A stretch of 64,000 nucleotides of DNA from Escherichia coli. Its GTDB lineage: Bacteria > Pseudomonadota > Gammaproteobacteria > Enterobacterales > Enterobacteriaceae. The stretch is from NCBI RefSeq assembly GCF_036507355.1, contig NZ_AP027877.1, one strand, 5' to 3'. Shown here in pieces: positions 24,001-30,000 of this stretch (its first letter is position 1; every line of letters begins with the position of its first letter). Position numbers: made by a program.

Positions 24001-27000
24001 CGCTCACAGTGGCTTCTCTGTTGGGTGGGTTGGTACGTTTGCCGATCGCTCAACACATATCAGCAGCAGTTACAGCAAACAACCAGGCTATGGCGTGAAT
24101 GATTTCTACGTCAGTTATCAAGGACAACAGGCGCTCAAAGGTATGACCACTACTTTGGTGTTGGGTAACGCTTTCGACAAAGAGTACTGGTCGCCGCAAG
24201 GTATCCCACAGGATGGTCGTAACGGAAAAATTTTCGTGAGTTATCAATGGTAATCATCTGCCCCGATATTTCGGGGCATTTATCTGGAAGGAAGAGAGAC
24301 AATGAACCACTACACACGCTGGCTTGAGTTAAAAGAACAAAATCCCGGAAAGTACGCGCGTGACATCGCAGGGTTAATGAATATTAGAGAAGCAGAACTG
24401 GCATTTGCACGCGTCACGCACGATGCGTGGCGGATGCGCGACGATATCCGTGAAATTCTGGCGGCGCTCGCAAGTGTTGGCGAGACCAAATGTATTTGCC
24501 GTAATGAATATGCAGTCCATGAGCAAGTTGGTGCGTTCACAAACCAGCATTTGAACGGACATGCCGGATTGATCCTCAATCCGCGCGCGCTGGATTTGCG
24601 TCTGTTTCTCAATCAATGGGCCAGTGTTTTCCACATCAAAGAAAACACGGCTCGTGGCGAACGCCAAAGTATTCAGTTCTTTGATCATCAGGGCGATGCA
24701 TTACTAAAAGTTTATGCCACCGACAATACCGATATGGCGGCATGGAGTGAGCTTCTGGCATGGTTTATCACCGATGAGAATACGCCGCTTGAGTTAAAAG
24801 CCGTTGATGCGCCAGTTGTTCAAACGCGAGCCGATGCCACTGTGGTCGAGCAAGAGTGGCGGGCGATGACCGACGTTCATCAGTTTTTTACGTTGCTCAA
24901 GCGCCACAACCTGACGCGCCAACAGGCGTTCAATCTGGTGGCAGACGATTTGGCCTGCAAAGTATCCAACAGTGCGTTGGCGCAAATTCTTGAATCTGCA
25001 CAGCAGGATGGTAATGAAATCATGGTGTTTGTTGGCAACCGTGGCTGCGTACAGATTTTCACCGGTGTGGTAGAAAAAGTGGTGCCAATGAAAGGTTGGC
25101 TGAATATTTTCAACCCGACGTTTACTCTTCATCTATTAGAAGAGAGCATTGCTGAAGCCTGGGTTACCCGTAAACCGACCAGCGATGGCTACGTAACCAG
25201 TCTGGAATTGTTTGCCCATGATGGTACGCAGATAGCGCAACTTTATGGTCAACGTACAGAAGGCGAACAGGAGCAAGCGCAATGGCGTAAGCAAATTGCT
25301 TCGCTGATACCGGAAGGCGTTGCTGCATAACGTATAATTAACGGGAGGTCTGGCTATTTATTGCTGGGCCTCTTTATATTGATCAATCGTTCACACCAGA
25401 TAATCAATATGCTGATGGCGTACCAGCTCATTGATCCGCTTAAGATTGAGGATCATCATGATATTGTGTTTATGGCAGTAGAACGTTTTTAGCGATATTT
25501 TCAGTTTCTCCAGAATATCTTCCGTTGTCATTTGATTCGCAATGCAGCTCAGTACCTGATGTTGCTTGCGCGAAAGTGACACATTCGCTTCAGGCACAGA
25601 GCAGTAACTGCCATTGATGAGTGCGACAAAATCAATGATAGTGATAGTCCGCGGAACAAAGGTCACCGGCACTTTCCCCAGGCAGCGTTTAATATTAAAG
25701 GGGGAGAAAATAATGACATGGACAGGTTTTAATCGTTCAATTTGAGTGAGAAAATTAGAATGAAATACATTATTCATTAATGTATCAATAATGACGAAGG
25801 CATTCTGATGCAACATTACGTCGATCTCTTCTTCGTTCTGTATATGAACGACATTACCTTTACTCAGAATGTTTTTCATCGCGGTGAAGAACATCGTATC
25901 CCTGGTAATTATAAGAAACATAACCGACTCCTGGTGCGGACATTAACTTTATAATCAGTTTGCCAAAGGTAATTAACAGAACAGGGCTTATAATAATAAT
26001 AGTTAGCTTACTGTATATTAATTTTATGTAATACATGATGCAGATGCTGAGAAAGCATCTGCATCTTTCGGTGGTGTTATTTGACCAGCTCAGGTGTTAC
26101 CTGACTCACCGCATTGGTGTAGTAAGGCGCACCCCAGCCCGGTTCCGGCCAGAATGCACCATAGCCGTAATCCCACAGGTTATAGGTGGTATTAACCACT
26201 TCTCTCAAATGCCACACCTGGATGCCCTGCATATTCACTTCCAGGAAGTTATACGGGACTTTATTGATAAAGCCTGGTTGTTCACCCTGAATGGTACCGA
26301 GGATGGTAACAAAGTGATTACGATAGTTCACTGGGTCAAGGAAGCCGCTTTGTCTGGCGAGCAGTCGGCCCTGATAGTTGGCTTCAATATCAGGCTTCGC
26401 ATAGCTATCCAACGGTAATACAGCGATTTCTAACAACGTATCCGTTTTGCCATTGATAACGTTGATAACCTTCCCACCAAAGCGCGCTTGTTGACCAACA
26501 TATAACCCCGGCTGGTTATGAACAGCAACAAAACTTTTTTGAATATCAGGTTGGTTATTGCCTTTGATATTTTGCGGAATTGAACTACATGCGGCAAGCA
26601 AAAATGAAAGGCTGAGTATGAGTGCACCTTTTGTCATGTTCATGTTACTATCCTTATCAACAAATATTAAAACCATAATAGATATTTCTTTATAGTTTTC
26701 ATCTGATTCTGAGGCGATATGCCTGATAGTAACGTAAACCTGTCTGATGTTTATATCCCTTCTGTTTAGTTCAATTCCGTTATTTTGGGGCGTGGCATGA
26801 GTATCCATCGCCCCATAATATAACCATTTGTTTTAAAATTACATAAAATCTATTTTTATTCAATGATTATAAAGTGCTAATAATCAATATTATGGTATTA
26901 TATTCTGATAATGATTTGATAAGCGAATTCTTTTGCCAGATGGTATTTCTATTTCCACCCCATAATTTATATCTTTTTCATTAGGAAGTGGCCTCTTTAA

Positions 27001-30000
27001 ATAAGGCGTGTGTGACATTTTTTTGGGGTTAAGCGTCTCGTATTGAAATACTTCGAATTGATATTCAGACATTTCTGCCCATGTTTGAATTTTATTGTAT
27101 CGAGAGAGTGTCGTAAAGGCTTTAACTTGCTTATAACATTCTTTTTGGAATTCTTGCTGATATTTTAATATGTCGTTGTATGAAAGATTGGTTATCCTGG
27201 CCTCTAAAAATTTAATTATTGTCGAAGCAATTTCCGCTTTTGCTCGTAAAAAGTTGTCATTAATGGTTAATAATGTTGAAAATAAACCTTCGATTTGTTT
27301 GTCAAGATCTTGTTCGTCTTTATATAATTTTGGGGTAGGGTGTTCTTTATGTGAAAAAATAGTGTCACCTAAATTTACGTCAGTGAAATTTATATTAAGC
27401 AGATCTTCGAAATAAAACCTTGACAAGGTTAGAACGAACCCGGACAGATTCTGTCCTGTCATATTGAAATCAATAAAGTTGGTTCCGGCAAAGACTTTCA
27501 TCCTGTTTTTATTTTCACTGTGCTCAATATATAACTTCGTCATTTTTTGATACAGGCTTTGAATATCTTTTATATTGGTCGGTAAGTCAGCTCGTTGTTC
27601 AGCAATAAAATTAGTATCTGAAAACATGGTTTGGACACTGAATCTTACTGGTATTCCCTCTTCTACGCTAATTTTAGTTATGATTGCCTTGTCGGGTTTA
27701 GGATTAGCGACAACAATGATTCGACATTCAGCACTTTTGTTCTTTTCGTATCTAATGTTATTAATTTGATTAAGTATTTCCTGTGCCTGCCGCGTAAGTG
27801 GTGTCGAACTTATCGATTCAATGTTAGTAATAAGACTTACAAGTTGAGCCACAACTTTTGAGTAGTCTGCATCTGTATATTTGGTGTTCGTGCGGCACGC
27901 ATAAATTTGTGGGAGGTGTTGCCGCGCTAAATCATATTGTTCAGGGTTGTATCCTTCTCCAGAGAATGTGGAATTAATGGGTTGTTGTTCTTCCCGATTA
28001 TCACAAGGCCACATCGGTGTGTCTGGTGTTTTAACATTGTCGGTATCTGTTGTGCGGTTATAAATATCGCCGTGATATGTATTTATCATACCTGGGGTAA
28101 AGTCAATTGACATAACATTCCTTATTCATCATCTGTTTTATGCTAAGATTTTTAAATTGGATAATTAGAGCAGGAATGGATTTTCTTCTACGCACAATAA
28201 ATATCATGCGTCATATCTTCCTGATATAATTACCTTTGACTTCCCTTTTATCTCCACCCGGTAATATTTGTGTATAAAAAAGGGCATTGATAGTATCGTA
28301 AAGGAAAACGTTAACAACTATCAAAAAGCGCTCATTTTAAAAAGTTATGATGTTCTCCGATAGTGTGTGAAATGATATTTTTGTGATGTTTTAGATGTGT
28401 AATAATAAAATGGGTTAAGGTATCTTATAATTATTGAATAATTTGTTGTGTAAAGCACTGATAAATCATAATTCAGTACGTCTTTAAACTGCTGCACTGT
28501 ATCGCTGATAACTAAGCAGCTCACTGATACACCATGCTGGACGCGATAATTGGAATCTCACGCAGGGAGTAATGTGTAAATAGCAAAATCGCCTGATGCG
28601 CTACGCCTGTCAGGCCTACAAATAACATACAATTTATCGAGTTTTCATAACTTTGTAGGTCGGATAAGACGCGCCAGCGTCGCATCCGACATAAATAAAG
28701 CGCACTTTTCTAACAACCTGTGGGGGGGATATAGCCGCTTTATTTCAGGCGATTACCCGCTTCATCAACCACTTTCTCGCCATCTTCCTTGGAGAATGCG
28801 CCTTTTTGCGCATCTGGCAGAATTTCCAGCACGACTTCTGAAGGGCGGCACAGACGAGTTCCCAGCGTCGTCACCACAATCGGGCGATTAATCAGAATCG
28901 GGTGCTGAAGCATAAAGTCGATTAACCGATCGTCAGTATATTTATCTTCCGCAAGGCCCAGCTCCTCATACGGCTCGACGTTTTTACGCAGCAACGCGCG
29001 TACGGAAATCCCCATATCGGCAATGAGTTTGACCAGTTCATCGCGCGTTGGCGGAGTTTCCAGATAATGGATAATGGTCGGTTCTGTGCCGCTGTTGCGG
29101 ATCATCTCCAGCGTATTACGCGACGTGCCGCAGGCCGGGTTGTGATAAATGGTAATGTTGCTCATATCATTATCTCATTACAAAGTGAAAGAGAGACGTA
29201 GCGCCAGCGCCACCAGCGTTACAAACCAAAGCGGATAAGTCAAAAACATATATGGTTTAACGAATGCGTATGTGCAGAGGAAGGTAATAGGTGTGAATTT
29301 TGAGTTGGCTATTCATTTGAAAGGAGGTCTGAATCAGGACGTAAAAAAACCGACTTCGCGTCGGTTTTTTTACTCTTCAGCCCTGAGTTGGTGGCTCTGG
29401 CTGGAGTGAGAATGCCATCATCTAACGCATCAATACTAATACCATACTGAAACTATTGCAAGGACATGCTGGTTTTATAACCTGAATATACTGTATGATT
29501 ATCCAGTTAGCTCTGAGGCATTTTCACTCTGGCAATGCGCATAAACGCTTTCAAAGTCCTGATCAGTGGTACGGGTGGTGCCGTTAACTGATGCTCTGGC
29601 CGGAGTGAGAATGCCATTATCTAACAATAGGGCATGCGCCGTGACAGGCGATGGATGAGTAAGCGGATGCATTCTCACTCCATCGTATGGAGAACACGGG
29701 TGATTGATAAAGCAATCATCGTTCTTGGGGCGTTAATTGCGCTGCTGGAACTGATCCTCTTTCTGCTTCAGCTTCTGAACTGATAGCGGAAACGTAATTA
29801 AGGGCTAAGAGCACACTACTCTTAGCCCTTTAACATTTAACGCATGGTCACGAACTCTTCTGCCGCCGTTGGGTGAATGGCGACGGTATTATCGAAGTCT
29901 TTTTTGGTTGCGCCCATCTTCAGTGCCACCGCGAAGCCCTGCAACATTTCGTCCATACCAAAACCAATGCCGTGAATACCGACAATCTTCTCTTCCGGTC

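Follow-up and report, generated by a model that had tools for sequence, protein, structure and literature searches.

Several pentapeptide repeat proteins (PF00805/PF13599) are represented by structures, including Rfr32 (2F3L), TL15 (3N90), NP275 (2J8I) and AlbG (2XT2). Proteins of the Qnr, MfpA and AlbG type are dimeric and consist almost entirely of a beta-helix of about 8-10 coils, while the Escherichia coli type III effector EspX1 (ECs_0025), a soluble protein encoded by an AT-rich gene, carries a degenerate pentapeptide stretch among other domains. The yhiS gene of E. coli, analysed here in a stretch of 64,000 nucleotides of contig NZ_AP027877.1 (assembly GCF_036507355.1; hereafter the window), is likewise AT-rich and codes for a soluble protein with a stretch of this kind. 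In comparison with the pentapeptide repeat proteins of known structure, however, YhiS incorporates only ten pentapeptide units in its 407 amino acids, and the flanks of these units are unrelated to this family. No functional or structural description of yhiS could be found in the searchable literature, and K-12 lists it as an uncharacterised pseudogene. While the gene occupies the same locus in E. coli K-12 and O157 Sakai, both of these reference copies are broken and the copy in the window is full-length, and work on those two strains can therefore not reveal the function of yhiS.

The explanation favoured here, to which a probability of roughly 0.5 is given, is that yhiS in this strain is a genuine, intact and horizontally acquired accessory gene, coding for a soluble four-part protein that would serve as a binding scaffold, be silenced by H-NS/StpA and be of use under certain conditions. 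What is gained is the recognition of the intact form as a gene under selection, together with a domain map of its product that includes a recognisable module, which is cut by the insertion sequence IS5 in K-12.

The intact yhiS gene and purifying selection

Two features define the gene in the window:
26890..28113, minus strand: yhiS coding sequence, intact, 407 amino acids plus stop (open reading frame list, allele identity, dN/dS)
28119..28123, minus strand: Shine-Dalgarno-like AAGGA, 5 nt before the yhiS ATG (read from the sequence)

A single open reading frame beginning with ATG is present on the minus strand at these coordinates, in agreement with the continuous frame of 407 residues described in an earlier note on this DNA. 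Its markedly low GC content, also remarked upon in that note, amounts to 0.353 (0.319 at third codon positions, GC3), against 0.490 for the window, while the two intergenic regions flanking yhiS have GC contents of 0.36 and 0.30. The AT-richness of the gene and both spacers is well over the average, as in H-NS-silenced xenogeneic genes. The product has no transmembrane segment (maximum Kyte-Doolittle 19-residue mean 0.99) and no Sec signal peptide, the N-terminal 30 residues being hydrophilic (mean -0.78), as had likewise been anticipated.

The gene has slp on one side and arsC on the other, and its surroundings show the locus to lie at the margin of the acid fitness island of E. coli, with the gene order gadA...mdtEF-gadE-hdeDAB-yhiD, the chu haem locus and dctR-slp-yhiS-arsC-gor, and the arsC-slp position at the border of this island has been reported previously (PMC9729726). 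The gene was encountered only in E. coli and Shigella, and in every strain examined it is chromosomal and situated between slp and the ars genes. No matches were found on phages or true plasmids, the three nominal plasmid matches being records of 4.8-4.9 Mb that are evidently chromosomes. Two contig scans of 100,044 species representatives yielded no relative, but they also missed the E. coli representative itself and are uncalibrated, one of the search patterns being present in a deletion remnant from another E. coli strain (L006), and they are not used here to argue for absence from other Escherichia. The allele in the window shows 99% identity to the O157-type allele P0024 and 92% identity to P0007, which represents the commonest E. 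coli allele cluster (8964 members) and is full-length.

Alleles ranging from 99% down to 63% amino acid identity retain a frame of 407-410 residues. Nei-Gojobori ratios of nonsynonymous to synonymous substitution rates (dN/dS) for these alleles fall between 0.25 and 0.43, with p values of 9e-6 to 2e-15 in binomial tests against neutrality. The most constrained part of the protein comprises residues 256-300 (dN/dS ~0.1), while the pentapeptide module shows values of 0.13-0.37. Residues 301-378 are the most variable (dN/dS 0.4-0.78, not significantly below 1 in most comparisons), and no region of yhiS shows a dN/dS above 1. Intact yhiS is thus a real, selected protein-coding gene.

The pentapeptide-repeat module of YhiS

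The domain map of YhiS comprises the following features:
27949..28113, minus strand: N-terminal polar segment, residues 1-55, rich in T, N, D and P and probably disordered (secondary-structure prediction, model confidence, hydropathy)
27349..27498, minus strand: pentapeptide-repeat module of ten units, residues 206-255 (periodicity, profile matches, model, allele conservation)
27286..27546, minus strand: extended module, residues 190-276, consisting of an LY linker, the ten pentads and a second LY linker (hhalign, gapless alignment, domain match)
27031..27315, minus strand: C-terminal helical domain, residues 267-361, taking in the most constrained and the most variable stretch of the protein (model confidence of 68-85 in the hybrid-alignment model described below)

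Residues 206-255 form ten contiguous x-(N/D)-(L/F)-x-x units, of which all have F, L or M at the centre and six have N or D in the preceding position. On a simple pentapeptide score, the best nine-unit stretch of YhiS reaches 27, whereas 5000 shuffled versions of the sequence score 15.5 +/- 1.4, and none of them, at a highest value of 22, attains the observed score. The run of about nine tandem five-residue units described in the earlier note is therefore real but slightly longer, and its N or D at position 5 describes an identical pattern with the register shifted, the standard description being a hydrophobic centre preceded by N or D. Natural allele variation supports the pentapeptide pattern, as all 92 distinct full-length alleles keep F, L, M, I or V at the centre positions and swap N with D at the preceding one. 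The i-2 position of the module is often occupied by bulky or charged residues (K, F, Q, E), rather than by A, C, S, T or V.

A profile built from 12 YhiS alleles was searched against 1.84 billion representative proteins and returned the yhiS cluster, short proteins of 33-177 residues and 14 longer proteins. The short proteins mostly match other parts of the profile and are apparently products of truncated copies. By contrast with these, the 14 matches of more than 150 residues outside the yhiS cluster all cover only YhiS residues ~200-277, with several stretches each, and the ten that were tested are without exception strong PF00805 proteins (E 1e-36 to 1e-80). When the same profile was compared with the PDB sequences, Rfr32 was the top match (2F3L, E 0.0077) and TL15 the second (3N90, E 0.3), the only further match at E<=10 being an acetolactate synthase subunit. 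Alignment of residues 204-276 to a profile of pentapeptide segments with hhalign gave a probability of 98.2% (E 4.8e-14), a value that is biased by the pre-selection of these segments for their match to YhiS. Searches of NCBIfam, PADLOC and PHROGs gave no meaningful match to YhiS. An isochorismatase match in the PDB sequence search (E 0.14) disappeared in the profile search, and weak CLZ and GrpE matches at residues 265-312 reflect helical and coiled-coil composition only.

The best-matching modules for YhiS occur in four multi-module metagenome proteins (P0160, P0163, P0170 and P0173; loci L011-L013), which, where named, are labelled 'uncharacterized protein YjbI with pentapeptide repeats'. 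QLYST motifs lie ~65-70 residues apart in these proteins, and blocks of ten pentads are separated by linkers. Residues ~190-276 of YhiS can be aligned gaplessly to one whole super-repeat unit of ~70 residues, both LY linkers included, and one domain match of the pentapeptide proteins covers profile positions 182-293. While the four metagenome proteins carry 3-5 such super-repeat units, YhiS has one, accompanied by unique flanking domains. The N-termini of P0160, P0163 and P0173 are signal-peptide-like by eye, whereas YhiS is without an export signal, and P0170 has a PEP-CTERM match at the Pfam cutoff (20.6 bits versus 20.7).

Four parts can be told apart in the protein. In residues 1-55 no helix or strand is predicted before residue ~40, and the predicted local distance difference test (pLDDT) values are 23-37 in both AlphaFold2 models made. 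Residues ~56-200 are unmodelled and without relatives, the module follows, and the helical domain behind it is succeeded by a conserved tail. The second of the two models was derived from a hybrid alignment of the 12 alleles and 22 pentapeptide segments, the latter aligned cleanly to columns 205-265, and has a mean pLDDT of 52.7 and a predicted template modelling score (pTM) of 0.46. Residues 1-182 remain mostly below a pLDDT of 50 in this model, reaching 51-56 only around residues 90-110, while the module attains 61-77 and displays isolated beta-bridges every 5 residues. As the alignment contained pentapeptide sequences, the hybrid model indicates compatibility with the fold and is not independent proof of it. 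The module is likely to adopt a right-handed four-sided beta-helix of about 2.5 coils.

Several observations weigh against this assignment and the role built upon it. The score of YhiS against PF00805 is 10.1 bits (E 0.65), where the gathering cutoff is 20.2, and while PF00805 is the only family matched consistently, by 11 of 12 divergent alleles, all of these matches are sub-threshold (best E 0.037). By the curated criterion of Pfam, YhiS is not a pentapeptide protein. Single-domain scores against the pentapeptide proteins are only 10-26 bits, the library-wide E-values being obtained because repeated matches are summed. Conservation is no higher in the module than elsewhere in YhiS, the module ranking 116th of 357 windows along the protein, and its inward-facing positions are not less variable than the outward-facing ones among the 92 alleles (p 0.54). 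Foldseek comparisons with PDB and BFVD gave nothing below E 0.01 and no pentapeptide structure, and the AlphaFold2 model based on the 12 alleles alone (mean pLDDT 33.5) was uninformative and unusable, although it does not constitute a refutation. Finally, the scaffold role is a best guess drawn from the general behaviour of the fold, in which the beta-helix and the helical domain may together bind another macromolecule, as a scaffold or adaptor. YhiS is best regarded as a new member of the pentapeptide-repeat kind that stays below the threshold, with a single module in an otherwise orphan protein. What the earlier note observed is confirmed, while its interpretation receives support in part.

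Proposed silencing and repeated inactivation

Two further features bear on the expression and loss of yhiS:
28114..28739, no strand assigned: arsC-yhiS intergenic region, GC 0.36, presumed to hold the yhiS promoter (composition)
27018..27024, minus strand: A7 homopolymer, codons 364-366, a recurrent frameshift site (Sakai comparison, allele forms)

The arsC/yhiS spacer of K-12 is one of 78 'promoter islands', which is bound by H-NS in all chromatin immunoprecipitation studies and is associated with predicted foreign genes (PMC3661553, Table 1), and yhiS is among the named high-affinity StpA/H-NS sites of this strain (bioRxiv 10.64898/2026.02.10.705075). The regulator YdeO binds nearby and induces slp-dctR, but not yhiS (PMC4222967). 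It may be supposed that yhiS is normally kept silent by H-NS/StpA in the strain studied here, as in K-12. When the locus was scanned for promoters and terminators, some weak promoter-like sites appeared, in numbers not exceeding those of shuffled sequence. A near-consensus sigma-70-like site occurs on the plus strand at window positions 27299-27328, antisense within yhiS (TTGTCA, 18 nt spacer, TATAAT; 11 of 12 matches), and fits the 'promoter island' character reported for the K-12 locus.

Inactivation of yhiS has taken several forms. In a K-12 derivative, the IS5 transposase gene lies between two yhiS fragments (PMC8170033), which accords with the disruption of the K-12 gene stated in the earlier note, and the insertion site corresponds to window positions 27368-27372, at about codon 248 and inside the repeat module. 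The O157 Sakai gene ECs_4376 has A6 where the copy in the window has A7, resulting in a product of 371 residues, and the two alleles differ by 9 substitutions and one indel. Forms of 371 residues ending in PKKCH..LI occur on four allele backgrounds, while P0055 ends like the simulated product of one additional A. The A7 tract is a hotspot of recurrent inactivation or possibly a switch. An IS1 element replaces yhiS in one strain, a bloodstream isolate that carries chuS has a 915-bp deletion (equivalent to window 26820-27734), and in roughly one genome in five no place spans 80% or more of the query. The closest genome match (L001, 9294-10514 of NZ_CP096837.1) is annotated as a frameshifted pseudogene, but this label is probably an annotation artefact, as the sequence translates to an intact 407 residues; it is suspected that the label arose from alignment by the annotation pipeline to a 371-residue reference protein.

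The many independent inactivations would be expected of a decaying relic without present function, whose pentapeptide-like pattern is a remnant or has arisen by chance. The binding of K-12 yhiS by H-NS/StpA and its lack of response to YdeO (PMC3661553, PMC4222967) point in the same direction, as do the wild-type minimum inhibitory concentration (MIC) of chlorhexidine in a K-12 yhiS deletion mutant and the unchanged MIC of chlorhexidine-resistant isolates provided with plasmid-borne yhiS (PMC8170033). The dN/dS of the gene is also high for E. coli. Such decay is nevertheless difficult to reconcile with dN/dS values significantly below 1 over synonymous divergences (dS) of 0.3-0.6, with the strong constraint on residues 256-300 (dN/dS ~0.1) and with a repeat pattern far beyond chance. 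Furthermore, an AT-rich frame of 407 codons has stayed open in most allele classes, including the largest cluster with its 8964 members. A relic is consequently considered unlikely. Under the favoured explanation, an accessory gene encoding a binding scaffold, yhiS would be useful only conditionally, and this would explain the weak constraint, the very old mosaic alleles and the repeated inactivation by IS5, IS1, the 915-bp deletion and slippage at the A7 tract.

Allelic divergence, alternative roles and neighbouring features

The sharply bounded allelic divergence of yhiS beside nearly invariant neighbours is the most notable feature of the locus and extends over the following region:
26741..28430, no strand assigned: between-strain divergence island comprising yhiS and both intergenic regions (four-strain alignment, 5417 genomes, mosaicism)

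Across 5417 E. coli genomes the identity of the yhiS segment ranges from 80 to 99%. In alignments with the corresponding loci of four strains (L003, L004, L005 and L008), divergence is ~1% through dctR and slp, rises abruptly to 10-27% within the slp-yhiS spacer (at ~26741) and continues at a high level through yhiS and the upstream spacer. The most distant allele, P0116, has 63% protein identity and 77.6% DNA identity (dS 0.61) and occupies the same site, between arsRBC and slp. The flanks of the P0116 strain show DNA identities of 98.9% for slp and 96-97% for gor, dctR and chuS, and the dS of slp is 0.016-0.05. The synonymous divergence of yhiS within E. coli is thus of Salmonella scale. The alleles are mosaic, with maximum chi-square tests giving p<=0.001 in five of the six pairs and breakpoints near nt 117 and nt 321-372. 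This divergence could stem either from balancing selection acting over a long time or from alleles imported again and again from unsampled relatives, at a junction prone to recombination. Loci of this kind are often a sign of contact with hosts, phages or competitors; should no such interaction exist, yhiS would be an ordinary H-NS-silenced orphan.

The divergence may be taken a step further, to an ancient, recombining and multi-allelic interaction locus under balancing or diversifying selection exerted by a variable external partner. The partner could be a target in the host, to which a cryptic secretion route would lead, or else a protein of a phage or mobile element, and slippage at the A7 tract combined with H-NS silencing would provide on/off control. 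In a related form of this reading, YhiS would be, for instance, a decoy that draws off phages, toxins or mobile elements, or a factor giving immunity to them, with the A7 tract as the switch. Both forms are considered improbable. The dS of up to 0.6 at one syntenic site (slp, 0.016-0.05), the sharp boundaries of divergence and the mosaic alleles would all be expected of a hypervariable locus, as would the A6, A7 and A8 variants on several allele backgrounds and residues 301-378, where dN/dS (0.4-0.78) is not significantly below 1. However, no region has a dN/dS above 1, neither PADLOC nor PHROGs gave a match, and the high dS could equally be due to alleles that came in from unsampled relatives at a junction which is prone to recombination and whose upstream neighbour also varies. 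Seven adenines are also short for a phase-variation tract, and the frameshifted forms could reflect simple decay or, in part, sequencing error.

YhiS could alternatively be, or have been, a type III secretion substrate, delivered by the system of the locus of enterocyte effacement (LEE) or by E. coli type III secretion system 2 (ETT2), with the polar N-terminus as its signal. The low GC content and the lack of a Sec signal are compatible with such an effector, as are the 48% of S, T, N, P, I and Q among the first 25 residues, the N-terminal pLDDT below 40 and the high allelic diversity. A further point of likeness is that the pentapeptide module is short and degenerate and forms part of a larger protein, and EspX1 too stays below the Pfam threshold (PF13599, E 0.0027). 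Against this, the first 25 residues include four acidic ones, hhalign gave a probability of 1.7% against EspX1, and thus no homology, and no type III effector chain appeared among the PDB profile matches at E<=10. The gene is not part of an effector locus, a prophage or a plasmid. Intact alleles of the commonest class occur among isolates that are not recorded as pathogens, one of them from a dog rectal swab, and in O157 Sakai the LEE system works but yhiS is frameshifted. The association with type III secretion that the earlier note proposed to check was not borne out, in that EspX1 homology, the PDB profile search and the locus all failed to provide a link to it. PipB2, SopA and NleL are likewise type III effectors that contain pentapeptides; compared with these and EspX1, the position of the module in YhiS differs. 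An effector role for YhiS is consequently thought improbable.

It is not thought that YhiS is an enzyme, nor that it is a DNA mimic, a kind of protein to which the earlier note pointed, which would bind gyrase or topoisomerase IV and protect it from poisons in the manner of Qnr, MfpA and AlbG. This role is highly improbable because the module has only about 2.5 coils: while the pentapeptide beta-helix is the common building block, in those proteins it is essentially the whole protein and has the length of a DNA mimic, whereas in YhiS it accounts for 50 of 407 residues (12%). At E<=10 neither the sequence search nor the profile search of the PDB retrieved a chain of this type, the closest modules belonging instead to proteins with signal-peptide-like N-termini (by eye).

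Aside from yhiS itself, its surroundings vary between strains. The upstream neighbour may be arsRBC, arsC alone or a permease gene with an ArsR/SmtB regulator. In the window, arsR and arsB are absent at ~29226-29229, where ~1.7 kb has been deleted relative to Sakai, leaving arsC alone upstream of yhiS. The arsC-yhiS spacer includes, at window positions ~28654-28690, a GC-rich imperfect palindrome (gtcggatgcgacgctggcgcgtcttatccgacctaca), which by eye resembles a repetitive extragenic palindromic (REP) element. Between arsC and gor, on the minus strand at 29341-29425, a match to the Rfam family AgrB (RF02891, 92 bits) was found, AgrB being the antisense RNA of the dinQ/agrAB locus. In the chu haem locus, an IS3-family element of 1264 bp (window 22123-23386; transposase reading frame 22525-23343) interrupts chuA, the gene for the haem receptor, of which O157 Sakai has an intact copy. 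Where the aligned flanks of this element meet, they share 4 bases, which suggests that a short target site has been duplicated.

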